This document shows positions 7,995 to 43,418 of a stretch of 64,000 bases of DNA, piece by piece. Source of the stretch: Candidatus Scatocola faecipullorum. Its GTDB lineage: Bacteria > Pseudomonadota > Alphaproteobacteria > RF32 > CAG-239. Numbering within the stretch: the first letter of the stretch is position 1; each line of letters opens with the position of its first letter. Made by a program: the position numbers and the translations under genes. The notes beneath the pieces are model-generated. The model searched no databases, had not been told where the DNA came from, and saw only the letters and a list, made by a program, of their open reading frames with translations. The stretch spans positions 43,459 to 107,458 of the forward strand of contig DVNC01000028.1 of the NCBI GenBank assembly GCA_018714685.1, in the 5' to 3' direction.

Positions 7995-10900
7995 ATGTCA
8001 GAGCCTAAATTTGTACATTTAAGAGTTCATACCGCCTATTCGTTGTCGGAAGGCGCCATGCAGGTGCCGGCTCTGATTCACAAATGTCATGCTCAGGGCA
8101 TTGCCGCCATTGCCGTAACCGACACCGCCAATATGTTTGGCGGCAAGGCTTTTTCCAAATATGCCTCGGAAGAAGGGGTCAAGCCGATTATGGGCTGCCA
8201 GTTCTATCTGCGCAATCCTGATGCCGATGACGTGTTAAAGTCCAAAGGGCGCGTGATTGAGCCGGATAAGATTATCCTGCTGGTCATGAATGATGAAGGC
8301 TATCATAATATTATGAAGCTGATGAAAATCGCCTACCTCGACGGTCCAAACCTTGAAAAACCGCAGATTCGCCTGCAAAACCTGCGTGAGCTGAATGCCG
8401 GGCTGATTGCCCTGACCGGTGGTGTTGAAGGGCAGATTGGCCGTTTGCTTCTGGAAAATCGTAAAGATGAAGCCGAAAAAACGCTGGTCGAACTGAAGGA
8501 GATTTTCCCCTCCCGTTTGTATATGGAGATTATGCGCATCGGTCTCGAAACCGAGCAGCGCACTGAGGAAGATTTTATCAATTTGGCCTATAAATATGAT
8601 ATCCCGCTGGTTGCCACCAACGAAGCATTCTTTTTTGATGCTGATATGTATGAAGCGCATGATGCGCTGGCTTGCATTGCTGCCGGTGAATATGTTGCCA
8701 ACGATAACCGCAAAAAGTTTTCGCCCAATAACCGCCTCCGCTCCGAAGCGGAAATGATTGAACTTTTCAGCGACCTGCCGGAAGCGGTCGAAAGCACGGT
8801 TCGCATTGCCGAGCGTTGCAATTATCTTTCCAAAAAGGTTAATCCGCTGCTGCCGATTTTTGAATGTCCGGACGGCAAAACCCAAGATGAATTTATTACC
8901 GAAGAGGCCTATAAAGGACTTGATGAGCGAATGAAAGCTCAGGTTTATTTTGAGGGAATGACGGCGGAAGAGAAGGCTGAAATTGACGAGCGTTATTATG
9001 CCCGCCTTGAATATGAATTGAGCGTTATCAAAAAAATGGGCTTTCCCGGCTACTTCCTGATCGTATCGGACTTCATCCGCTGGTCCAAAGGGCATGGCGT
9101 GCCGGTCGGTCCGGGCCGCGGTTCCGGTGCAGGCTCAATCGTGGCTTGGTCTTTAAAAGTAACCGACCTTGATCCGCTGAAACTGGATCTGCTGTTTGAA
9201 CGTTTTCTTAATCCGGAACGTATTAACATGCCGGATTTCGACGTCGACTTCTGTCAGGAAAACCGCTACAAAACCATTGAATATGTGCAGAACAAATACG
9301 GTTTTGACCATGTGGCGCAGATTATTACCTACGGTAAGCTGCAATCCAAAGCGGTGATTCGTGACGTGGCTCGTGTGCTGCAGATGCCCTATGCTCAGGC
9401 AGACCGCATCAGCAAAATGATTCCGCCCGGCGTGCAGGGTAAAAATCCGACCTTGCAGGAATCTCTCGATCAGGTTCCTGAGTTGGAAGAAATGCGTCAA
9501 AACGACCCGCAGGTCAATAAACTGTTTGACATTGCGATGAAACTGGAAGGACTGTATCGCCAGTCCGGTGTCCATGCTGCCGGTGTGGTTATCGGCGACC
9601 GCCCGCTTGACCAGCTGGTTCCGCTTTATAAAGATCCGAAGTCGGATATGCCGGTGACCCAGTATGATATGAAATATGTCGAGGAAACCGGCCTGATTAA
9701 GTTTGACTTTCTCGGCCTGAAAACTCTGACCGTGATTAAACGCGCCTGTGACTGGGTTAAAAAAGTGCACGGCGTTGAGCTGGATATGGACAATATCAAT
9801 CTGGATGACCGCCCGACCTACGAATTGTTGCAGCGCGGCGATACTTCCGCGGTGTTCCAGTTTGAATCTCCCGGCATGAAAGACGTTCACAAGCAAATCA
9901 AGCCTGACCGTTTTGAAGACCTTATCGCTATCGTTTCCCTCTACCGCCCGGGCCCGATGGACAATATTCCGAGCTATATCAAACGCAAGCACGGGGAAGA
10001 AGACATTACTTACCTGCATCCGCAGCTGGAGCCGATTCTTAAGGAAACCTACGGCATTATGATTTATCAGGAGCAGGTTATGAACATCGCCCGCGCATTG
10101 GGCGGCTACACCATGGGCGGTGCGGACAAGCTGCGTAAAGTTATGGGTAAAAAAATGCGCGACGAAATTCCGAAACAGCGCAAAATGTTTACCGAAGGCG
10201 CCATTAAAAACGGCATTGAACAAGCTACGGCCGAAGCAATTTTTGACCAGATGGAAAAGTTCGCTTCTTACGGATTTAATAAGTCACACGCCGCTGCTTA
10301 TTCGCTGATTTCTTACCAGACGGCTTATCTGAAAGCGCATTACCCGGTTGAATTCTTGTGCGCGGTTATGTCTCTTGATATTACCAACACCGAGAAACTG
10401 CTTCTTTATAAGGAAGAATGCAAAAAGATGGGTTTTGAGGTGCTGAAGCCTGATATTAACAAATCCGGTGCCGACTTTGCGGTGGAAGACGGCAATATCC
10501 GTTATGCCCTGGGCGCCATTAAAGGCGTCGGTGCCGCCAATATGCAGGCGATTGAAGATGAACGCCGGGCGCACGGCCCTTATAAGGACTTGTCTGATTT
10601 CATTCATCGTACCGACATCAAGCAGATTAACCGCCGCCAAATGGAACAGCTGGCCAAGGCCGGGGCTTTTGACTGTTTGGATAAAAACCGCGGCAAGATT
10701 TTTGCCAACATTGAAACGATTATGCAGCATATTGCCGCAGCCAGCGAACTGAAGACCAGTTCTCAGGCTTCGCTGTTCGGTACCGAGGAGCTGCATACCA
10801 CCGTCAAACTGGCCGATAAGCCGGATTGGCCGGAGCTGGAAAAGTTGAAGCTTGAAGCTGAGGCCGTCGGCTTTTATCTTTCCGCGCACCCGCTCGACAG

Positions 10901-29635: not shown

Positions 29636-30751
29636 TCATTCTGACTCTGTTTTTTTATTATTCTGACTTTCTGCTTTTAATCGCTTGTTTAATGCTCTTA
29701 AACTCAACGTGTCAGTGTTGGCCTTATAAACTTCGTTAAATATTTTTTCGTTGGTATGTCCGGTTATGGAAATTGTTGCTGCAGAAGTAACGCCGGCTTC
29801 AGCATATGCGGTGCTGGCCGTATGGCGCATATTTTTGAAAACATAATCAAAACCAAGGGCATCGCGCACTTTTTTGAAATAATCGGAAAAACGTTCGACG
29901 GTAAAATTGCCGTAATCATCGCAAATAATATAATCTTCTTGTGCGAGAACTTTATCAACTAGATGCGGCGGTATCGGAATTCGGACTTCTTTGCCGGTTT
30001 TATTTTGAATAATGTCAAAAAAGTAGTTTTTGCCTTTTTTATAAATATGTTGTTTCCTCAATTTTAGTACATCAGCCGGTCGCTGAGCCAGATAGAAATT
30101 AAGTTCTATTGCCAGAGCGACAAAAGCATAGCCCAGCTCGTAAGCTTTGGTAATTAATAAATGTATATGTTCCGCCGGGATAATTTTCTTTTTGGGCTTT
30201 GGTTTGGTAATACGTAAATTTTCAAACGGATTCTTTCTGGTAAAGTAACCTTTATTCAATCCAAAATTATAAAGCAGACGTAAGACCGTGATGCAATACA
30301 TTGCTTGATACTGCTTGAAAAGTCCGACAAACTTCTCATAAAGGTTATATGCGGAATCATAATCAAATTTATCCAATGGAATGTCTTTAAAGGCTGTGCC
30401 GCTGCTGCCGGATTTTATTTTGCAGAGACGTTCAATTGCGTATGCGTATGATTTGGCAGTCCTTTCACTTAATTTTTTATATAAACGGCTTTCTTTGTAG
30501 TTCGTCCAAACAAACATTAAAGATTTTTCCCGAAGGTTATCTTTATATTTACGAAAATCATTAAGCTGACGGTTTAATTTAATGGCTTGTTCGCAGGCCG
30601 ATAAATAGTCACAGCCAAGGGCATAAGACGGCCTCATATCGCAGCCTTCCGGGATTAAGCGTTTCGGAAGGTTGAAATAATAAGCCGTCTTGCCTCCTTT
30701 TATCTTCTTAGCCGTGAGGTAAGGTATTTTATCGCGCGATCGCTTCATCAA
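29636..30751 (-). CDS. int: tyrosine recombinase / phage integrase
   Basis: 371 aa. The C-terminal catalytic region carries LAQRPADVLKLR, MRHTASTAYAEAG and TGHTNEKIFNEVY (R...H-x-x-R...H...Y pattern). Confidence 0.9.
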   Translation of the reverse strand: MMKRSRDKIPYLTAKKIKGGKTAYYFNLPKRLIPEGCDMRPSYALGCDYLSACEQAIKLNRQLNDFRKYKDNLREKSLMFVWTNYKESRLYKKLSERTAKSYAYAIERLCKIKSGSSGTAFKDIPLDKFDYDSAYNLYEKFVGLFKQYQAMYCITVLRLLYNFGLNKGYFTRKNPFENLRITKPKPKKKIIPAEHIHLLITKAYELGYAFVALAIELNFYLAQRPADVLKLRKQHIYKKGKNYFFDIIQNKTGKEVRIPIPPHLVDKVLAQEDYIICDDYGNFTVERFSDYFKKVRDALGFDYVFKNMRHTASTAYAEAGVTSAATISITGHTNEKIFNEVYKANTDTLSLRALNKRLKAESQNNKKTESE

Positions 30752-30962
30752 TTATCCAGTCATCGTTGGCAAAACTGGTTTCAGTTTCAGGATTAGGCTT
30801 ATTATCGTTAACTTCGCGGTAAAGTTTCGTTTTCCGGGAATAAGGTTTGACTTCCAATAGGCCCTGCCGGACGTATTTGTTAAGAGTTCGATTGTCGGTG
30901 TAGGGATCTAACCCAAGCTTTTTCTTCATTTCTTCCGGTGTCATAAATCCGTTATCATTCAT
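30729..30962 (-). CDS. small HTH protein, excisionase-like by position
   Basis: 77 aa immediately upstream of int and overlapping it. It has an HTH-like segment TLNKYVRQGLL. Confidence 0.4.
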   Translation of the reverse strand: MNDNGFMTPEEMKKKLGLDPYTDNRTLNKYVRQGLLEVKPYSRKTKLYREVNDNKPNPETETSFANDDWIIDEAIAR

Positions 30963-32716
30963 ACTGCGTTCTCCAATAAAAATCTTTCATTCAGATTTAC
31001 CGCGACAATGGCCCGGGCAACAGGCGGACAAACCGCGTTGCCGCATTTCTGCACCTGTGCCGTCTTGGTTATCGGGGTACCGTCGGCCTGACGGTCGAAG
31101 ATATAGTCGGCAGGAAAGCCCTGTGCGGCATAGAGTTCATGCGGCTGGAGCATACGCAAACCGATGTCAACAATCACATACGGTTCGCTGCCGATGTAAA
31201 CGGTTATCAGGGCAAAGCGGTCTTTGGTCGGTACCGTGTCCAGAGGTTCATTAAGTGGCTGGCCGTCTTTTTCATTGCCGTAGTATTTCACGAGTAAAGC
31301 CCGAACTTCGGCAAAATGCTTGCCTTGTGCGCTGATGGTCTGCAACGGTTCTTCCACGCTTTGGCCGATATTGGTACCGCGCATTTTGACAAGATGAGAA
31401 GTTACAAGGCTGTTGTGGTCGATTGCCGTTATAGTATCAACCGGCTTGTTCATCTCTGAGCCGGTGGCGCCGGTGTAGTGTTTGGCTAAAAACGCGGTTA
31501 CAACCTGACTGTGATCTATCCGGGTAATGGTGCCAAGCGGCGCGTCTGCATCTGTGCCGACAGATTGTCCGTATTGGCGAGCCAGGAAAGCCGACACAAG
31601 CGCGTGTTTCTTGCCGCCGGAGACGACAGTTCCAAGAGGAACATCAAGCCCCGGCACGCGGGCTTTTTGTCCGGGTTTCTCGCCGTAACCGATATTAATT
31701 AAGGTTGCGGCCGCAACGGCATGGCCGTTCTTGGCGGTTAATGTCGGCAGCGGGTTATCCGGCGTTTGGGTGCGGTGGTCGTTTCCGGTGTGGTTGACCT
31801 GAACCAATGTCGGAACAACAAGAGCATGATGGCCGCCTTTGGGGTTTGCGGTTACGGTTGTTAAAGGCTTATCCGCCGGATTAATGGAATCGTTCGACCA
31901 GTTGGCAATGCTGACAATAAAAGGTTTCGGGTTATTCAAAACAAACTTCTGGATTCCTTTGGCTATCCGGCGCAGGGTATTCTCTGACAACGGTTTCTTG
32001 CGCTCAAAAATTGACGGGCAGGGGATTGTCCAGTCGATAATTTCGGCCGCTGTGTGCCATGGCTTGAGTTTCTTTTTCTTTGTTTCCGGGCTTTTAGGGT
32101 CGCCGTGGGTCGGATCCGGCCAAACAATCGGCTGACCGTCGCAACGGGCAATCAGGAACAAGCGTTTGCGGCTGGTGGGTGCACCAAAATCACAGGCCGC
32201 CAAAATCCGCCATTCGACTTGATAGCCAAGCCCGCGCAGTTCTGCAATCCAGCGGTTAAAGGTTTCGCCGGCGCGGGATTTATCCGGCCGGTTGTCCGGT
32301 CCGAGCGGTCCCCAAGTCTGAAATTCCTTGACATTTTCAAGAAAAATCATTCGCGGGCGTACGGTTTTAGCCCATTTAATGACAACCCAAGCCAGCGAGC
32401 GGATTTTTTTGCTGCAGGGCGTGCCGCCTTTGGCAATAGAAAAATGGGTACAATCCGGGGAAGCCCAAAGCAAACGCACCGACCGACCGCGGGTAGCCAC
32501 CAACGGATGAACGGCAAAAACGTCTTCCTTAAAGTGCATGGTCTGCGGATGATTAGCCGCGTGCATGCCGATTGCTTCCGCGTCGTGATTGATGGCAATG
32601 TCAACGGGTGTGCCGGTCGCCTGTTCAATACCGGTATCTGCACCTCCGCCGCCGCAGAATAACACAACATCAATCTCCGGCTTGGTGTCCATCAAGATAT
32701 ATTGATTGTTTAACAT
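30959..32716 (-). CDS. DNA (cytosine-5)-methyltransferase with an expanded repeat-containing variable region
   Basis: Motif I VVLFCGGGGADTG, catalytic Cys motif ASPDCTHFS, FLENV, and motif X QKCGNAVCPPVA. Between them lie seven degenerate P-L-x-T-(I/V/L)-T-A repeats of ~32-39 aa. Confidence 0.9.
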   Translation of the reverse strand: MLNNQYILMDTKPEIDVVLFCGGGGADTGIEQATGTPVDIAINHDAEAIGMHAANHPQTMHFKEDVFAVHPLVATRGRSVRLLWASPDCTHFSIAKGGTPCSKKIRSLAWVVIKWAKTVRPRMIFLENVKEFQTWGPLGPDNRPDKSRAGETFNRWIAELRGLGYQVEWRILAACDFGAPTSRKRLFLIARCDGQPIVWPDPTHGDPKSPETKKKKLKPWHTAAEIIDWTIPCPSIFERKKPLSENTLRRIAKGIQKFVLNNPKPFIVSIANWSNDSINPADKPLTTVTANPKGGHHALVVPTLVQVNHTGNDHRTQTPDNPLPTLTAKNGHAVAAATLINIGYGEKPGQKARVPGLDVPLGTVVSGGKKHALVSAFLARQYGQSVGTDADAPLGTITRIDHSQVVTAFLAKHYTGATGSEMNKPVDTITAIDHNSLVTSHLVKMRGTNIGQSVEEPLQTISAQGKHFAEVRALLVKYYGNEKDGQPLNEPLDTVPTKDRFALITVYIGSEPYVIVDIGLRMLQPHELYAAQGFPADYIFDRQADGTPITKTAQVQKCGNAVCPPVARAIVAVNLNERFLLENAV

Positions 32717-34235: not shown

Positions 34236-34493
34236 CTACCATTTGAGAAGCATGGTTGCGGTGGCAGCCGTCTTTTCGTCCTGAACGGAATAAAAGATTT
34301 GTTGAGCCTGACGGCGGGTCTTAACCAAACCGGCTGCGCGCATGATTGCCAGATGCTGCGATATTGCCGACTGTGACATCTTTAACTTAAGCTCCAGTTC
34401 GCCGACGCTCAGTTCTTCCGCTTTATCCAGAATTTTAATGATTTTCAGGCGCGTCAGATTGGCAATTGCTTTGATTTTTTCATTCGTAATCAT
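34236..34493 (-). CDS. ArsR/SmtB-family winged-HTH regulator
   Basis: ANLTRLKIIKILDKAEELSVGELELKLKMSQSAISQHLAIMRAAGLVKTRRQAQQIFYSV. Confidence 0.7.
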   Translation of the reverse strand: MITNEKIKAIANLTRLKIIKILDKAEELSVGELELKLKMSQSAISQHLAIMRAAGLVKTRRQAQQIFYSVQDEKTAATATMLLKW

Positions 34494-35076: not shown

Positions 35077-35367
35077 TTATGCCGTTTTGTCTGAAGCGGG
35101 CAGTGTATCGTTTGCCGATTCCAAGGCCAGAATCGTGCGGATATGCGCGGTTACATACGGGCGTAAATAAATGCCGGCAATGGTAAGCAGACGTTCCTGT
35201 CTGCGGTCAGCTTCGGCAGCCAACTCATTAATGATATAACGTTGTTCTTCCGGCATCAGGGCCTTAAGGCCTTCGATATCGTCAATATACTGCCGATAAG
35301 AGTTTTTTATGTTATCTTCGGCCTGTTTAACTTTGGCTTCAATGTGAACTGTTAGATTTGTATTCAT
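35077..35367 (-). CDS. first gene of the leftward early operon, hypothetical
   Basis: 96 aa. Strong RBS AAAAGGAGGATGT before the ATG. It lies directly downstream of the PL-like promoter. Confidence 0.45.
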   Translation of the reverse strand: MNTNLTVHIEAKVKQAEDNIKNSYRQYIDDIEGLKALMPEEQRYIINELAAEADRRQERLLTIAGIYLRPYVTAHIRTILALESANDTLPASDKTA

Positions 35368-35399: not shown

Positions 35400-35427
35400 A
35401 TAATACATATTGTAGTAATGTTGTCAA
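35400..35427 (-). promoter_or_regulatory. PL-like early leftward promoter with embedded operator
   Basis: On the minus strand: -35 TTGACA (35422..35427), a 16-nt spacer, and -10 TATTAT (35400..35405). The spacer contains CTACAATATGTAT (35403..35415), the same half-site family as the operators at 37914..37984. Confidence 0.55.
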
Positions 35428-35699
35428 TATAAAATAATACATTATATAGTAATTGATCCTGAAGTTAAAATACTATTTAGTGTTATTGTAAAATATGGAA
35501 TTATTACATGTCTTGCAGAAAACTCCAAGCTTAGCCCCTAGCAAAATGGCAAGGATGCAAGTTTGGTTTAATAAGCGGAGAGTGTATTATAAATCTGTTT
35601 ACCACGACATTTGGCTTTGCTGGAGAGATTTGTAAAATGTAAAAAAATAACGAATAAATATGCAAAATTAAGGTCTTGTTAAAATATTTTGGAAAAATA

Positions 35700-35729
35700 C
35701 AAAAAAAAGAAGCCATCAGTATGGCTTCT
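35700..35729 (-). terminator. intrinsic terminator closing the cI / Ntn-hydrolase / small-ORF transcription unit
   Basis: Stem AGAAGCCAT/ATGGCTTCT (35708..35716 / 35721..35729) with loop CAGT and an 8-nt U-tract on the minus strand (A-run 35701..35708). Confidence 0.65.
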
Positions 35730-35750
35730 TTTAGTTGATTCATTCAAAAA

Positions 35751-35921
35751 CTATTTAAATTCTTTTGAAGATGTTGTTTCTTCATCTGATTTGCTTTCTT
35801 TTATCGCTTCAATGACTTTTTTAGAAATAGTATCAGCGATTTCAGAGCTTTTTCTGTCAATATACTGGTCAGCACAAGAATAACTATACGTATAACTCTG
35901 AGGTGATGTTAATGTTTGCAT
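35751..35921 (-). CDS. 56-aa acidic Ser/Thr/Lys-rich peptide (below the ORF-track size cutoff)
   Basis: My own translation: MQTLTSPQSYTYSYSCADQYIDRKSSEIADTISKKVIEAIKESKSDEETTSSKEFK. The RBS is GGAGA in AAAAGGAGACAAAAATG. It is followed by the terminator at 35700..35729. Confidence 0.45.
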   Translation of the reverse strand: MQTLTSPQSYTYSYSCADQYIDRKSSEIADTISKKVIEAIKESKSDEETTSSKEFK

Positions 35922-35973
35922 TTTTGTCTCCTTTTAATGCATACTATGCAAATATTATGCCATAAAAACAAAT

Positions 35974-37185
35974 TTATTTAAAGTAATTTTCAAAAAAATG
36001 AAAATTTAAATCTGCAGGAAAATATAGTTTTCTTTGTTTCCAAATAAAGCCATCATGTTTTGAAATAATTGCAACATCAATTGGTCCGCCCACCTGTTCA
36101 AGATTGTTAGAAACCTTATAACTGATGGCTTGAAGTTTTATTAAATACTCTGCAAGCTCAGCCATTTCTTCTTTTGATAGGTTATCCAGAGCATCAAGTC
36201 TAGGAGATATTTGAACATGGTTTATATAATCATCAAGTCCGAAGTTAGCAACAATATCTTTTTTTATGTTATCTAATAAAGTAAGAAATATTTCATCTGG
36301 AAGCTTAAAAACAGCTTGAATTTCATTGAGGGTTTTATCTACCGTTTCATTCAACATTTTTTGAAATTGTTGTAAAACAGAATCAGAAACACCTCTTAAA
36401 AAAGTATCCATCATATCTCTTTGAGCTAAAGGAACAATACCGCAACTGGTTGATGAAACGATATTTTTATCATTAATTATGTAAAAATTATCACCAATTA
36501 AACCAATAATTTCCATCTTTGATATGGCAGGATAAATTTCTGATAAACCATACCCACAAATAGCAATGCCTGTATAGTGATAACAGATATTCATAAAAAG
36601 AAAAAAGAATTTTTTTATATCGTCTTTGGTAACTTTTACGCCAAAGGTTTGATTAAATTTATCAATGTCCAAATCATTTTTTACAAAATTATAATATTTT
36701 TCTAAATTATCAAAATTAAACCGGAGAAGTTTTCTATCTGTAATTATAGATTCCAAGGATGCTTCTTGCTGTTTTATAATATCACAAACTTCAATATTTT
36801 GAGCATTTATAATAAGAGAAGAAAAATATTGTAAAAATTCCTTATAGTAAGAGCAAAATTGCTTTTTTTTGTCATCCATAGATGTATGGGATTTTACAAA
36901 ATCTTCAACAAAGGATTTAAACGCTTCACTGCATTTGGAAATTGTTGCGTAATTATTCTTTCCATGTTGTGCACGAAATTCTTTTATAATAATTTCAACA
37001 GGAATTTCATTAATTGCTGCGTTATTGTAAACTAAAATACCAACAGGATATTCTTTTGACAAACTAAAAAGCTTATTTGCAGTATTATAAACTTTTTGTT
37101 GTATTGAACCTTGCGATATTGTAACAGCACTATCTGCAGCTAAAACTATTCCGGATTTGTTCTTTATGATAACTTCTGATGTCAT
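35974..37185 (-). CDS. proteasome beta-subunit/HslV-like Ntn (Thr1) hydrolase homologue with a large internal insertion
   Basis: 403 aa from an AT-rich gene. It starts M-T. TSEVIIKNKSGIVLAADSAVT...NKLF parallels the 20S beta pattern TTTVGI..DAVIMATERRVT...KKLF, giving Thr1, Asp17 and a Lys33-equivalent. The C-terminal GGPIDVAIISKHDGF parallels SGGMIDVAVITRKDGY. Confidence 0.6.
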   Translation of the reverse strand: MTSEVIIKNKSGIVLAADSAVTISQGSIQQKVYNTANKLFSLSKEYPVGILVYNNAAINEIPVEIIIKEFRAQHGKNNYATISKCSEAFKSFVEDFVKSHTSMDDKKKQFCSYYKEFLQYFSSLIINAQNIEVCDIIKQQEASLESIITDRKLLRFNFDNLEKYYNFVKNDLDIDKFNQTFGVKVTKDDIKKFFFLFMNICYHYTGIAICGYGLSEIYPAISKMEIIGLIGDNFYIINDKNIVSSTSCGIVPLAQRDMMDTFLRGVSDSVLQQFQKMLNETVDKTLNEIQAVFKLPDEIFLTLLDNIKKDIVANFGLDDYINHVQISPRLDALDNLSKEEMAELAEYLIKLQAISYKVSNNLEQVGGPIDVAIISKHDGFIWKQRKLYFPADLNFHFFENYFK

Positions 37186-37195
37186 TTATATATCC

Positions 37196-37873
37196 TCATA
37201 ATTTTTTGAGTTTCATCTGGTAATCAATAACGACGGCTTTTATTTCATAACCCGCATTATCATTAGCATTGGCAGCTGTAATAACAATTGGCTTATAGGA
37301 TTCGTCTGTCGATTCCGGAGACAAGATAACGGTGTTTTCGTCAACTCGCGTGAAACGCTTAACGGTGGCCTCATATTTTCCGTCTGATGAAATGCGCTGA
37401 GCAATAACATAGTCACCGTTTTGCACGCCGTCTGCATTCAAATTGTAAAAATCATTTATGTCCATACATATCAAAGTCGTTTTTTCGGCGGGAAAAATGC
37501 GGTTCATGGAATTTCCGCGTACACCTAACGCGAAAATATGAAGTCCTTTTATATTATCGTTCATTTCATAACAAACAGGTTCCCATTCATCTTGAGGAAG
37601 TTGAAAAGCTTCCTGCCAGTTTCCGGCCTCAACGAAGCCAATCTTATTAATGGTTGTTATTGATGAGCCATTGGCGTTTGAACCATTAACAAATTCGGCT
37701 GGATCTATTTTTAATACTTTGGCAAAGCGATAAATTTTATTTTCGTCAATGGTCCTTTCGCCTTTTTCAAATTTTGTAATGGATTGTTGCGAAAAGCCGA
37801 CCATTGCTCCCAATTCAGCTTGAGTTAGTCCCAGTTCAATTCTTTTTTTCTTAATTATATCCCCAGCTCTCAT
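37196..37873 (-). CDS. cI: cI/LexA-like phage repressor (XRE HTH + S24 peptidase)
   Basis: N-terminal HTH (LGLTQAELGAMVGFSQQSITKFEKGER). The C-terminal S24 domain has GNSM (Ser nucleophile) and VKRF (Lys). Confidence 0.9.
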   Translation of the reverse strand: MRAGDIIKKKRIELGLTQAELGAMVGFSQQSITKFEKGERTIDENKIYRFAKVLKIDPAEFVNGSNANGSSITTINKIGFVEAGNWQEAFQLPQDEWEPVCYEMNDNIKGLHIFALGVRGNSMNRIFPAEKTTLICMDINDFYNLNADGVQNGDYVIAQRISSDGKYEATVKRFTRVDENTVILSPESTDESYKPIVITAANANDNAGYEIKAVVIDYQMKLKKL

Positions 37874-37907: not shown

Positions 37908-37987
37908 ATTATATACAACAATTTGTATTATTTCAAACTACAATTTGTAGTAAAATTCTGTTGACGTGATAATACAATGTGTATTAG
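37908..37987. promoter_or_regulatory. divergent PRM/PR-like switch region with three operator palindromes
   Basis: O1 is TACAACAATTTGTA (37914..37927), O2 is CTACAATTTGTAG (37938..37950) and O3 is ATACAATGTGTAT (37972..37984). The leftward promoter has -10 TATAAT (37908..37913) and -35 TTGAAA (37931..37936) with a 17-nt spacer. The rightward -35 is TTGACG (37961..37966), with only a weak -10. Confidence 0.55.
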
Positions 37988-38012: not shown

Positions 38013-38249
38013 ATGAATTTTAGTGATTATTTAAAAAACGCCAATAAAACTTTAAGAGAAGCGGCTGCGGAGACTGGAATCAGCTATGAATTGCTCCGAA
38101 AATATAAAAATAAACAGCGCCGCCCGCGCATTGAAAATATGCTTATTCTGAGAAATTGGACTAATGGTGCAGTTACGGCTGATGACTGGTATATGCCGGC
38201 TAACGATAACAAACCTCAAGATCAAAATAGAAATGAAGCATTAAAATAA
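38013..38249 (+). CDS. Cro-like small HTH regulator
   Basis: 78 aa from ATG 38013, with GGGAGG upstream. It has an HTH-like segment LREAAAETGISYELLRKYKNK. It is divergent from cI. Confidence 0.55.
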   Translation: MNFSDYLKNANKTLREAAAETGISYELLRKYKNKQRRPRIENMLILRNWTNGAVTADDWYMPANDNKPQDQNRNEALK

Positions 38250-38260
38250 AAAAGTTTAAC

Positions 38261-38293
38261 CGTTTTGCTTTTAATTAAGCAAAGCGTTTTTTT
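38261..38293 (+). terminator. tR1-like intrinsic terminator after the cro-like gene
   Basis: CGTTTTGCTT-TTAATT-AAGCAAAGCG (one G-U pair) followed by TTTTTTT. Confidence 0.55.
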
Positions 38294-38315: not shown

Positions 38316-38786
38316 ATGGAAGAAAAGAAACGCGGAAGACCAGCAGGAAAGAAGTTGTCTGCGGATTTTTACAAAAAATCGGCACCGCAGCGTGAAGACC
38401 TGGCTTTGATTGCGCAAGGGAAAATTAAACTTGGTGCTGACATGGATACTCCGGTCAAGCCGGAGTATGACAGCAAAAAAGACAAGCCAGAGTATGACGG
38501 CAAAAAAGAGAAGCCGGCGTATGACGGCAACTTAGTCGGAATTGGCCCGAACATGACGGGTAGGGACAAGCCCGGGCATGACGAGGCCGGCGGAACGCCG
38601 GAATTGACAGCACAGCAGACGGAAGCTCTCAGCAAAGTCTGCCAGACGGATGAGCTGCTGGATATGATGCTCCGCTCTTTGGAACAATCCGGCGCAAATC
38701 CGCGGTGGCTGGATGAAGCCAAAATCAGCTTTTCCGTCGGAATGATGGAAGTATGCCGCGCTATCTTAAAACCGCAGGGAATCTGA
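38316..38786 (+). CDS. hypothetical phage protein with an RGRP motif, KPEYD repeats and a C-terminal helical-hairpin motif
   Basis: 156 aa. It has KRGRPAGKK, three copies of KP(E/A)YD(S/G)KK, and a C-terminal NPRWLDEAKISFSVGMMEVCRAILKP. Confidence 0.5.
   Translation: MEEKKRGRPAGKKLSADFYKKSAPQREDLALIAQGKIKLGADMDTPVKPEYDSKKDKPEYDGKKEKPAYDGNLVGIGPNMTGRDKPGHDEAGGTPELTAQQTEALSKVCQTDELLDMMLRSLEQSGANPRWLDEAKISFSVGMMEVCRAILKPQGI
38458..38530 (+). repeat. 27-bp tandem repeat (2.7 copies) inside CDS 38316..38786
   Basis: AAGCCGGAGTATGACAGCAAAAAAGAC / AAGCCAGAGTATGACGGCAAAAAAGAG / AAGCCGGCGTATGACGGCAA. Confidence 0.8.
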
Positions 38787-39786: not shown

Positions 39787-40224
39787 ATGGGATTATTGGA
39801 TAAATTCAAAAACAAACCGTTTCCCGAATGGATGCGGAAGATGAAAGCGGAAGAACAAATTGAAGAGGAACGTCAGGCTGCGCTGGACAGCATGAGAAAC
39901 GTTCCGCCACAGTATGATTGGTCGCAGGTCAGGCAGGCACCGGTATTGAACATCAGAAAGACGCTTCAGGAGATAAGCAGACAAATCGACCGCCGATGTT
40001 ACAACCGCTTTATTCTGCGCACCAGCTTGCGGGAAACGACAGACCCGATTAGGGCCGAATTGCAAAACTTTATAAAAAATCCTCTTAAGCTCAAACTTTC
40101 TGCCGGATTGAAGCGCAAATTGCGCCGCGAAAAAGCGAAATACAAGCAAATCCGGGAATGGATGGATGATGTGGAAAGGGCCGTAAATGAGGCCGTATTC
40201 GGGGATTCCGGCGATGAGCGTTAA
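39787..40224 (+). CDS. hypothetical phage protein
   Basis: 145 aa from ATG 39787 (MGLLDKFKNKPFPEWM). Confidence 0.4.
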   Translation: MGLLDKFKNKPFPEWMRKMKAEEQIEEERQAALDSMRNVPPQYDWSQVRQAPVLNIRKTLQEISRQIDRRCYNRFILRTSLRETTDPIRAELQNFIKNPLKLKLSAGLKRKLRREKAKYKQIREWMDDVERAVNEAVFGDSGDER

Positions 40225-41338
40225 AATTTATGTAGATGACGCTTTGGCGCGTTTGCGACAACTGCCGGACAGTTCGGTCAACTGCGTAATTACGTCGCCG
40301 CCCTATTGGGGGCTGCGGGACTATGGCATTGCCGGGCAGCTCGGACTGGAGGCAACGCCGGAAAAGCATATTGCTGCGCTGATTAAGGTTTTCCGCGAAG
40401 TTAAAAGAGTTTTAAAGCCGGACGGCACGCTGTGGGTCAACTACGGTGACACCTATGCTTCAAGCGTTAACGGCCGACCGGCAGCGGAGGTTGTCAACGA
40501 TAACCGTACATTCCGCGATAAGCCTTTCTCCACCGTTGTCGGCAGGTTGAAGCCAAAAGATTTGGTTGGGCTGCCGTGGCTCTTGGCTTTTGCTTTGCGG
40601 GACAGACTGGGTTTTTATCTGCGCAGTGACATTATCTGGCATAAACCGAACTGTATGCCGGAATCAGCCAAAGACCGCCCGGCCAAAGCGCATGAATATC
40701 TTTTTCTGTTCAGCAAATCGCCGCGTTATTATTATAATTATGCCGCGGTGCGGGAACCGGTGGCTGCAAATGACAACGGGATTGTGCGGCATCCGAACGC
40801 TTTAAGTTTTGCCCGGATTGTCAATGAGCCGGAGCGTCCGGGACATAGTGACAGCCAGCACCGCATAACGCGAGGCAAGGGTAACAGCCGGAGCTTTCGC
40901 GGCGGCGGCGCCTATGTGCATAGTCAGAATTTTCAAAATTCGGCGGCGATGGCGCATAAAACAGCAGGAAATCAGGAAAATATAAGCGGTTTGCGCAATC
41001 GGCGGACAGTTTGGACAATTGCCAGCCGCGGTTTTTCCGAGGCGCATTTTGCGACTTTTCCGCCGGAGTTGGTGCGGCCGTGTCTGCTGGCCGGCTGTCC
41101 GGCGGACGGTGTGGTGTTGGATCCGTTCGGCGGTGCTGGAACGGTCAGCCTTGAAGCTGAGCGGCAGCAGAAAAACTCGATATTAATTGAGTTAAACCCG
41201 GCATACGCCGAAATTGCCCGCCGCCGGATTATAGCAGACGGCGGGATGTTCTGCCAAATTGACATTATTCGCCCCAAAGTACAAAAGACCGGATTGCGGT
41301 TGTTTTGGCGGTGGTTGCGGCGAAAATTATGGCTTTGA
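40214..41338 (+). CDS. beta-class N6-adenine/N4-cytosine DNA methyltransferase
   Basis: Motif IV VITSPPYWGLRDY comes first. Motif I DPFGGAGTVSLEA is near the C-terminus. The start is placed at ATG 40214 (MSVKIYVDDAL). Confidence 0.85.
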   Translation: MSVKIYVDDALARLRQLPDSSVNCVITSPPYWGLRDYGIAGQLGLEATPEKHIAALIKVFREVKRVLKPDGTLWVNYGDTYASSVNGRPAAEVVNDNRTFRDKPFSTVVGRLKPKDLVGLPWLLAFALRDRLGFYLRSDIIWHKPNCMPESAKDRPAKAHEYLFLFSKSPRYYYNYAAVREPVAANDNGIVRHPNALSFARIVNEPERPGHSDSQHRITRGKGNSRSFRGGGAYVHSQNFQNSAAMAHKTAGNQENISGLRNRRTVWTIASRGFSEAHFATFPPELVRPCLLAGCPADGVVLDPFGGAGTVSLEAERQQKNSILIELNPAYAEIARRRIIADGGMFCQIDIIRPKVQKTGLRLFWRWLRRKLWL

Positions 41339-43249: not shown

Positions 43250-43322
43250 GGTGGGATAGAGCAGTTGGCAGCTCGCTTGGCTCATAACCAAGAAGTCGGA
43301 GGTTCAAATCCTCCTCCCGCAA
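43250..43322 (+). tRNA. phage-encoded tRNA with CAT anticodon (Met or Ile2 type)
   Basis: GGTGGGA-TA-GAGC-AGTTGGCA-GCTC-G-CTTGG-CTCATAA-CCAAG-AAGTC-GGAGG-TTCAAAT-CCTCC-TCCCGCA-A. CCA is not encoded. Position 1:72 is G:A. Confidence 0.75.
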
Positions 43323-43418
43323 CTCAAAAGACGAAATCGGCGTCCTATCCGTCTTTTCAAAAAATTTGACCCGCCGCGTTTTCCGGATCTTGTACGATAA
43401 CAAATCCGCCCATTTTAT

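Follow-up and report, generated by a model that had tools for sequence, protein, structure and literature searches.

The 64,000-nucleotide stretch of Candidatus Scatocola faecipullorum DNA analyzed here (contig DVNC01000028.1; hereafter, the window) contains an integrated temperate phage with a two-gene, AT-rich accessory cassette inside its cI operon. As sequence profiles and a structural model show, the first gene (35974..37185, minus strand) encodes a 403-amino acid (aa) N-terminal nucleophile (Ntn) hydrolase of the proteasome-beta/HslV superfamily, with an N-terminal threonine (Thr1) among its predicted catalytic residues. The second gene (35751..35921, minus strand) encodes a 56-aa protein, its likely partner. 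The hydrolase-partner pair is an autonomous mobile unit, which occurs among prophages, phage satellites, plasmids, and chromosomes. The best explanation of these data is that the cassette would act in the lysogen as a phage exclusion or abortive infection system, a reading that draws on sequence comparison, modeling, and analogy and to which we assign a probability of about 0.5.

A preliminary description of this DNA had expected the 403-aa protein to retrieve the Proteasome/HslV families from Pfam and PDB. This did not hold for single-sequence searches: Pfam, PDB, PADLOC, and NCBIfam returned no match, and the only similarity detected in this way was to phrog_5990, a PHROG of unknown function. 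It did hold for the family profile, whose best PDB match was the Thermoplasma 20S beta subunit, with a weak score (E 0.015). PF00227 was the sole Pfam family matched recurrently, weakly and in 10 of 46 homologues (best E 7e-4), and not by the window protein itself, which points to a remote homology between this family and PF00227. The family comprises 2,313 proteins at E < 1e-3 among word-sharing candidates, and 4,717 clusters at 50% identity in an exhaustive scan. Its members are around 400-450 aa long, and every one of them is annotated as 'hypothetical protein'.

The fold is supported by an AlphaFold2 model of the 403-aa protein (pLDDT 86.5, pTM 0.84). The top 50 Foldseek matches of this model in PDB are all 20S beta subunits or Anbu (probability 1.0, E-values down to 8e-5, TM-score normalized to the target 0.5-0.6), in agreement with the Ntn sandwich that had been anticipated. 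The best structural match in BFVD, a library of viral structures, is a phage 'proteasome beta type-2 subunit' (E 2e-5). Similarity to the proteasome lies in three collinear pieces, at the N-terminus, in the middle, and at the C-terminus of the protein. The hhalign comparison with a profile of genuine archaeal beta subunits aligned the S5/S6 segment (E 2.9e-5) and was confined to it because the insertions described below break the alignment. The comparison with the single E. coli HslV was too weak to use (probability 5%), with T2 opposite Thr1 and D18 opposite Asp17.

The catalytic residues named in the preliminary description all aligned as proposed. In the profile alignment to the Thermoplasma beta subunit, T2 corresponds to Thr1, D18 to Glu17, and K38 to Lys33 in a K-L-F context; after removal of the first methionine D18 becomes Asp17, and K38, within N-K-L-F, lies at Lys33 plus four. 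The C-terminal GGPIDVAIISKHDGF also aligns with SGGMIDVAVITRKDGY of the Thermoplasma subunit, as had been suggested, and the segment VGGPIDVAIISKxDGF of the family profile pairs with the same stretch, the two sharing a GGxIDVAxI motif. T2, D18, K38, G366-G367, and D370 are among the invariant positions of a 46-sequence alignment, and T2, D18, and K38 are each conserved in at least 95% of 113 sequences sharing less than 80% identity. G49 is nearly invariant, with an ambiguous register relative to the oxyanion-hole Gly47. There is no propeptide; the threonine directly follows Met1, and 165 of the 168 full-length homologues from the fetched loci start with Met-Thr (two start with Met-Ser, the only alternative seen more than once). 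Removal of Met1 before a threonine by methionine aminopeptidase is established for HslV, and active Ntn enzymes are characterized by a position 1 at which the nucleophile is strictly retained. Past the last proteasome strand, the family has a strongly conserved C-terminal tail (residues 382-403; DNA 35974-36042) with W382, R385, K386, Y388, F389, N394, and Y401. This tail has no counterpart in 20S beta subunits or HslV, and may serve as a contact surface, either with the partner or in oligomerization.

The part of the protein with no proteasome counterpart had been described as one middle insertion, probably helical. It is helical in the model, where it forms two insertions rather than one. 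According to DSSP, helices H1 (residues 63-74) and H2 (82-100) are followed by five extra helices (103-200) and by the next strand (205-211); after strands S5-S8 (205-254) and helix H3 (257-264) come three extra helices (268-333), helix H4 (338-358), and the last strands. Insertion 1 (residues ~101-203; 36577..36885, minus strand), which starts after H2, is therefore separated by core strands S5-S8 and helix H3 from insertion 2 (residues ~267-335; 36181..36387, minus strand), which lies between H3 and H4. Compared with HslV and 20S beta subunits (MEROPS T1, PF00227), the cassette protein has the same Ntn alpha-beta-beta-alpha sandwich, Asp/Glu17 and Lys33, and the same strand motif, and shares with HslV the position of Thr1 directly after Met1. 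It differs in the ~170 extra residues of the two helical insertions, in the absence of conserved GSG(129) and D166xxS169 motifs, and in falling below the Pfam gathering threshold. Moreover, there is no HslU or other AAA+ neighbor at the cassette, ring assembly is doubtful, and the gene is an accessory of mobile elements rather than a housekeeping gene.

Although the protein family had been regarded as undescribed, proteins with this architecture were catalogued in 2021. The survey of proteasome homologues by Fuchs, Alva and Lupas (Bioinformatics; PMC8665760) includes the PMI group ('Proteasome homolog with Multiple Insertions'), in which PMI-3 and PMI-4 (representatives OGZ26396.1 and HDY66466.1, respectively) are interrupted twice, by a long insertion that follows H1/H2 and by another between H3 and H4. 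The authors expected insertions at both sites to prevent the assembly of rings and double rings. In their data PMI-4 is abundant and highly diverse, with 501 sequences in nr90, and is the sole PMI family marked in phages (Table 1 of PMC8665760). Judging from its modeled architecture and from its distribution, the cassette hydrolase is of the PMI type, and probably a PMI-4 protein. It shares with PMI-3 and PMI-4 the proteasome-like core with Thr1/Asp17/Lys33, the lack of a propeptide and of an AAA+ partner, and both insertion sites. The family is similarly large and very diverse, and the range published for PMI-4, over almost all bacterial phyla, some archaea, and phages, is also that of the cassette. 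The catalogue reports no function, partner, genomic context, or co-occurrence pattern for PMI proteins (PMC8665760), and we found no later literature that mentions PMI-4. The small partner, the hotspots in prophages and satellites, and the recombining hypervariable insertion reported here are absent from the published description.

Connectase, an archaeal monomeric proteasome homologue that acts as a protein ligase (PMC7980362), similarly has helical insertions thought to give substrate specificity and probably does not form rings. However, it lacks H1/H2 and has its insertion between S3 and S4, whereas in the cassette protein H1/H2 are retained, with one insertion following H2 and the other separating H3 from H4. 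Its taxonomic range and genomic context are also unlike those of the cassette.

The small downstream gene had been proposed as a possible partner of the hydrolase, and the survey of homologous loci supports this role. We defined a partner-like open reading frame (ORF) as one that is 30-140 aa long and whose start lies from -75 to +70 nt relative to the hydrolase stop codon, and searched for it in the 166 loci with enough downstream sequence. Such an ORF is present in 161 of the 166 loci, as compared to 47% after other long ORFs used as a control. A same-strand ORF of 53-74 aa follows homologues that share 84%, 48%, 40%, and 32% identity and lie in unrelated settings. Jackhmmer started from the 56-aa window peptide alone reached only the closest relatives, so that several seeds were needed; with 13 seeds, 69 of the 95 unique partners could be linked, and among ~15,500 control ORFs the matches fell solely at the 3' ends of PMI genes. 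These data identify the small ORF as a conserved and usually unannotated partner gene with a predicted helical product.

Partners diverge fast and yet form recognizable subtypes. Subtype A, to which the window peptide belongs, has a C-terminal amphipathic helix of the form EIS[DE][IV][IV]S[DE]K[IL]I..[VI]K.QF (SSEIADTISKKVIEAIKES in the window). Subtype B is recognized by S-x-[DE]-[EQ]-[YW]-x-[KR]-x-[YF]-[FL]-P followed by G..LA, and a third, shorter type is found in enterobacterial copies. The 56-aa partner has no helix-turn-helix (HTH), ribbon-helix-helix, or other domain in Pfam or NCBIfam, and no match in PDB or PADLOC. RefSeq leaves the partner unannotated in both E. coli genomes examined, which is probably why it has been overlooked so far. 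In these genomes the ORF lies directly after the PMI gene, at 9264-9413 of locus L177 (49 aa) and at 9207-9311 of locus L178 (34 aa); the PMI gene of L178 is itself annotated 34 codons too early, its true start being MTAEIVV. In the clade nearest to the window among species genomes (~38% identity; loci L012-L014, from metagenome-assembled genomes of an uncultured proteobacterium and of Alphaproteobacteria; proteins P0030, P0033, and P0037), the partner ORF is weak or missing. The hydrolases of this clade are instead extended at the C-terminus by 15-25 aa in which acidic residues and cysteine abound (for example, SKDDDCDKIKTEEEKDEDLPNCEC), which could represent a fused or replaced partner function.

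In the window, the order of the features is cro, OR/PRM, cI, cassette, terminator, OL/PL, and early-left genes. The product of 37196..37873 (minus strand) matches HTH_3 (E 4.7e-14) and Peptidase_S24 (E 8.6e-10) and is therefore a cI/LexA-type repressor; it also has a GNSM motif and matches phrog_4, annotated as transcriptional repressor. The hydrolase gene begins 10 nt past cI, and its GAGGA Shine-Dalgarno sequence, 8 nt ahead of the ATG, overlaps the cI stop codon. The partner gene has its own ribosome-binding site, AAGGAGA, which bears out the good site ascribed to it. Downstream, an intrinsic terminator (35695..35732, minus strand), composed of a 12-bp stem at 35732..35705 with four GC pairs followed by a T-run, appears to close the cI-cassette transcription unit. 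The GC content is 0.24-0.32 over 35400-37200, as compared to 0.40-0.46 in the early-left genes and 0.45-0.55 beyond 38400. The ORFs, repressor, terminator, PL-like promoter, and AT-rich composition reported in the preliminary description are all present at the positions given there, and the lambda-like layout that it proposed is supported by the gene order, by the promoter and terminator calls, and by operators confined to OR and OL.

The resulting arrangement is comparable to that of lambda rexAB. In both cases two genes lie on the cI strand between cI and OL/PL, with their own terminator and presumably with expression in the lysogen. The likeness is one of position, and at this level of architecture the analogy drawn earlier is sound. 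The cassette proteins have no sequence or fold similarity to RexA or RexB, with no such homology in Pfam, PHROG, NCBIfam, or PADLOC (the only match being phrog_5990), and the predicted Thr1 hydrolase biochemistry is different.

The cassette is widespread outside the window. We detected it in at least 545 species genomes, a set that spans the Proteobacteria, Bacteroidota, Firmicutes, Planctomycetota, Chloroflexota, Cyanobacteria, and Nitrospirota as well as some archaea; it is also present on at least 241 viral contigs of IMG/VR and on 10 plasmids, including megaplasmids. In E. coli it is rare, with 22 copies in 5,426 complete genomes (0.4%). The window's species with its cassette is not represented among the GTDB representative genomes. 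Among the 1,140 neighboring proteins of 112 representative loci, no family occurs in more than four loci, and we therefore rejected a conserved third component; as there is no conserved neighbor of any kind, there is also no AAA+ partner. The phage-borne proteasome homologues PPH and AAH are spread by phages and prophages as well (PMC8665760), but they belong to the compact group I with no insertions (PPH is ~140 aa long), as compared to the 403 aa and the PMI architecture of the cassette protein.

On viral contigs, the cassette often lies close to genes of the immunity region. In 36 distinct viral lineages, the four nearest genes are dominated by HTH_3 (9), S24 (7), Cro/YdaS-like (7), Phage_CI_repr (5), antiterminator Q (4), and ImmA/IrrE (2) proteins, together with lysis genes. 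In at least five viral lineages the gene upstream, on the cassette strand, encodes an S24 repressor, with gaps of 10-563 nt; these were counted with a scan for the GxSM motif, after Jackhmmer with the window cI had found two loci only. A Rac-like prophage of E. coli has the order cro-like gene, HTH repressor, PMI gene, and, further on, recET, which is the same slot downstream of the repressor as in the window. Contrary to what its first description had implied, the cassette is not specific to the immunity slot: copies are also found on plasmids, in other modules of phages, and on their own between housekeeping genes. In E. coli ETEC-2265 and in the cultured lambdoid Providencia phage PSTRCR_117lys it lies in the Q-lysis slot, between Q/Dam and the lysis genes; in other phages it is found in structural modules, and at the end of seven Streptococcus satellite phages (Javan) it forms the terminal accessory gene. 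The variable slots of prophages and satellites are known to harbor anti-phage systems (Rousset et al. 2022, PMC9122126). In a different prophage, with RecT/ERF, RusA, and terminase genes (loci L004-L007, the P0024 clade), the cassette follows an S24 repressor after 11 nt. This version is very common in human-gut metagenome assemblies, where the identical protein is indexed in 532 blocks and on 282 contigs.

A second copy of the prophage (L092/L001) revealed where the cassette varies. The two copies share 98-100% nucleotide identity all the way from cro to PL, a span that includes cI, the hydrolase core, and the partner, with the exception of ~340 bp (window ~36560-36900) in which identity drops to 55-75% with insertions and deletions. 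All 62 amino acid differences between the two hydrolases fall within residues 103-214, corresponding to insertion 1, while the cI proteins and the partners are identical. Synonymous (dS) and nonsynonymous (dN) divergence are 0.017 and 0.004 in the core, and 0.87 and 0.40 in insertion 1, where dS is ~50-fold above the flanks. Since high dS and indels indicate allele exchange rather than local hypermutation, an old and divergent allele of insertion 1 appears to have been imported by recombination. Two other sources of the patch were rejected: positive selection in situ, given a dN/dS of ~0.46 and the excess of dS, which fit an imported allele; and a diversity-generating retroelement, given the high dS, the indels, and the lack of a second copy of 36540-36920 (a template repeat) in the window.

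The same trend is detectable in an unrelated prophage clade (P0018-P0027), where residues 1-80 and 347-416 are invariant, the differences cluster in both insertions, and the alleles are mosaic, with insertion 2 variable among them. Throughout the family, mean column entropy rises from ~1.0-1.3 bits in the catalytic strands to 3.0-3.3 bits in the insertions (3.26 bits in insertion 1 and 3.04 bits in insertion 2). Because the partner does not co-vary with insertion 1, the ligand of this insertion is more probably external and variable than the partner itself.

Based on these features, we propose the following mechanism for a cassette that protects the lysogen. The cassette would be transcribed together with cI from PRM in the lysogen, stopping at its own terminator. 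Methionine aminopeptidase would remove Met1 and expose the Thr1 nucleophile, with Asp17 (D18) and Lys33 (K38) completing an HslV-like site. If the insertions block proteasome-like rings, as expected by the authors of the PMI catalogue (PMC8665760), the enzyme would be a monomer or a small oligomer, and may act as a site-specific protease or transpeptidase rather than as a degradation chamber. The helical insertions would be a specificity or sensor module, with insertion 1 existing as ancient divergent alleles swapped by recombination. Insertion 1 would probably recognize an external variable ligand, most plausibly a protein of a superinfecting phage, while the small partner would regulate the enzyme as inhibitor, adaptor, or bait. 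Upon infection, the enzyme would cleave a phage or host target, leading to an exclusion or abortive infection that protects the lysogen, analogous to lambda RexAB.

Several observations weigh against such a role in exclusion. Chromosomal copies lie mostly between housekeeping genes, with few type I restriction-modification, MADS, or insertion sequence neighbors, and for this reason no enrichment in defense islands can be claimed. Of the two associations that had been expected from a survey of neighborhoods, the one with cI-type repressors was found on viral contigs, and the one with defense islands was not demonstrated. The dN/dS of ~0.46 in the swapped insertion carries no direct signal of positive selection. 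At the active site, the position of GSG(129) reads P-[LF]-A-Q and that of D166xxS169 (DSxSGG) reads E-[TS]-V-G-G, so that neither proteasome motif is conserved. None of the 5,027 defense models of PADLOC-DB v2 matches the hydrolase significantly (the best being LeoBC, E 0.054) and none matches the partner, a negative outcome that had been foreseen for a new system. In the literature, we found no link between a proteasome-type hydrolase and phage defense, which agrees with the earlier claim that no anti-phage system built on a proteasome-family Ntn hydrolase has been described.

The alternative that survives best, even if we hold it to be unlikely, is a toxin-antitoxin-like addiction module, in which a labile partner curbs a toxic Ntn protease and the pair stabilizes its carrier element with no dedicated anti-phage role. 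The strictly two-gene operon with a tiny partner and no third conserved component would suit such a module, and so would the many copies that are solitary among housekeeping genes, the occurrence on plasmids and megaplasmids, and a hokD toxin-antitoxin gene near the cassette in one E. coli prophage. Type II toxin-antitoxin and abortive infection modules are likewise compact mobile operons of an enzyme and a very small partner, found in prophages, plasmids, and chromosomes; however, the cassette has no known toxin or antitoxin domain, and its partner has no recognizable DNA-binding fold. Simple addiction also leaves unexpected the hypervariable, recombining alleles of the insertion, as well as a partner that is identical between alleles whose enzymes differ by 62 residues. 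Because the boundary between toxin-antitoxin and abortive infection systems is blurred, this alternative partly overlaps with the exclusion that we favor.

Next in likelihood, and also improbable in our view, is a dedicated processing or ligating enzyme, resembling connectase or enzymes of peptide maturation, whose substrate would be the partner or a host protein and which would constitute a lysogenic-conversion trait with no phage conflict. Connectase is a precedent for a monomeric, helix-inserted proteasome homologue working as a sequence-specific ligase (PMC7980362, PMC8665760), the short conserved motifs of the partner could serve as a recognition site, and many chromosomal copies have housekeeping neighbors. 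A trait of this kind fits poorly with the lack of an exporter, modification enzyme, or any other conserved neighbor, with the patchy and transfer-driven distribution (0.4% of E. coli genomes), and with copies that are concentrated in the moron slots of prophages and the accessory ends of satellites. The hypervariable alleles of insertion 1 point instead to a target that is external and variable.

Far less probable is that the protein is a catalytically inactive proteasome-fold scaffold that acts by binding, with N-terminal residues of structural importance. Inactive proteasome-fold subunits exist, such as the alpha subunits (PMC8665760), and the lack of conserved Ser129 and Asp166/Ser169 motifs and the score below the Pfam threshold would be in line with a further one, but the retention of Met-Thr in nearly all homologues and the conservation of the Asp17 and Lys33 equivalents reported above speak for an active enzyme. 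The least probable reading is that the cassette serves lysis-lysogeny control of the prophage that carries it, for instance as a protease that processes the repressor, an antirepressor, or a host SOS factor, since translational adjacency to an S24 repressor, seen here and in other phages, is outweighed by the homologues that lie mostly away from any repressor and often outside phages, by the Q-lysis and structural locations within phages, and by the ability of S24 (LexA/cI-family) repressors to cleave themselves with no need for a separate protease.

Proteasome-family enzymes of bacteria are known as housekeeping proteases (HslV and the 20S proteasome) or as orphan homologues, and to our knowledge none has been tied to virus-host conflict. 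PMI-type proteins are among the largest orphan groups. The obligate partner missed by annotation, the slots in prophages and satellites, and the exchangeable hypervariable insertion are the first handles on them, and with these new elements the orphan family becomes a candidate immune module that can be tested. An exclusion function, if true, would give bacterial immunity a further kind of effector, a threonine protease, and suggest an early link between proteasome-fold enzymes and antiviral defense. We advance, more tentatively, that the cassette may be the founding example of a class of immune modules, in which a non-chamber Thr1 protease of the proteasome family, with a hypervariable helical domain that is swapped by recombination and recognizes phage proteins, would be gated by a tiny partner and carried by prophages (in cI-downstream and Q-lysis slots), satellites, plasmids, and chromosomes in most bacterial phyla and some archaea. 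Monomeric, sequence-specific proteasome homologues can also become tools, as connectase has for protein ligation. E. coli ETEC-2265 and Res13-Sevr-PER07-33 and the Providencia phage PSTRCR_117lys are tractable carriers of the cassette.

The regulatory DNA on both sides of the cI-cassette unit carries an 18-nt operator motif, ATAATACAWATTGTAGTA, with seven strand-matches in the window as compared to 0.07 expected by chance, all confined to the PL-like promoter and the cI-cro intergenic region. The OR region (37908..37987) has three copies (37914-31, 37935-53, and 37969-87) that overlap divergent promoter-like sites, among which is a PRM-like site, TTGAAA-17-TATAAT (37936..37908, minus strand). 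OL/PL (35400..35451, minus strand) has two copies (35400-17 and 35434-51) and the PL-like promoter TTGACA-16-TATTAT (35427..35400, minus strand), which matches the sigma-70 consensus at 11 of 12 positions. The first gene of the early-left operon behind this promoter is at 35077..35367 (minus strand). On the other side, the cro-like HTH gene (38013..38249, plus strand) matches HTH_3; its longest ORF starts at 37977, but translation more likely begins at the ATG at 38013, which has GGAGG ahead of it, and the counterpart in L001 is called at 78 aa.

Between the terminator and OL/PL lies an AT-rich spacer of ~240 bp (35452..35694), which had been said to have no convincing ORF. Indeed, it has weak ORFs only, no Rfam match above threshold, and no gene called in its L001 counterpart, and we assign to it no supported gene or RNA family. 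This spacer is 97-100% conserved in L092. Plus-strand promoter-like sites are found at 35421-35450 and 35465-35494, and a plus-strand ORF of 46 aa (35495..35635) would read antisense into the cassette.

The element around the cassette is a prophage with an integrase (29636..30751), two DNA methyltransferases, a portal, a GP7-type capsid protein, and a nozzle protein; a megablast search of the region against GenBank phages returned no match. The two methyltransferases are orphans, one of the C5 and one of the N6/N4 type, and the early-left operon also has an ArsR-family winged HTH gene. The coordinates of the methyltransferase and ArsR-family genes are 30959-32716 (minus strand), 40187-41338 (plus strand), and 34236-34493 (minus strand). 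No cognate restriction gene was noticed for the methyltransferases, with no dedicated follow-up search. Directly 3' of cro, in a cII-like position and separated from it by a terminator-like hairpin (38261-38286, plus strand), an ORF at 38316-38786 (plus strand) encodes a tandem peptide repeat, KPEYDSKKDKPEYDGKKEKPAYDG. The prophage also contains a tRNA-Met (CAT) gene (43250-43323), located where its early genes give way to those for packaging and structure. The host flank (window 1-29000) has a GC content of ~50-58% and encodes DnaE, a PtsP-like GAF-EI phosphotransferase, and the anaerobic ribonucleotide reductase NrdD.

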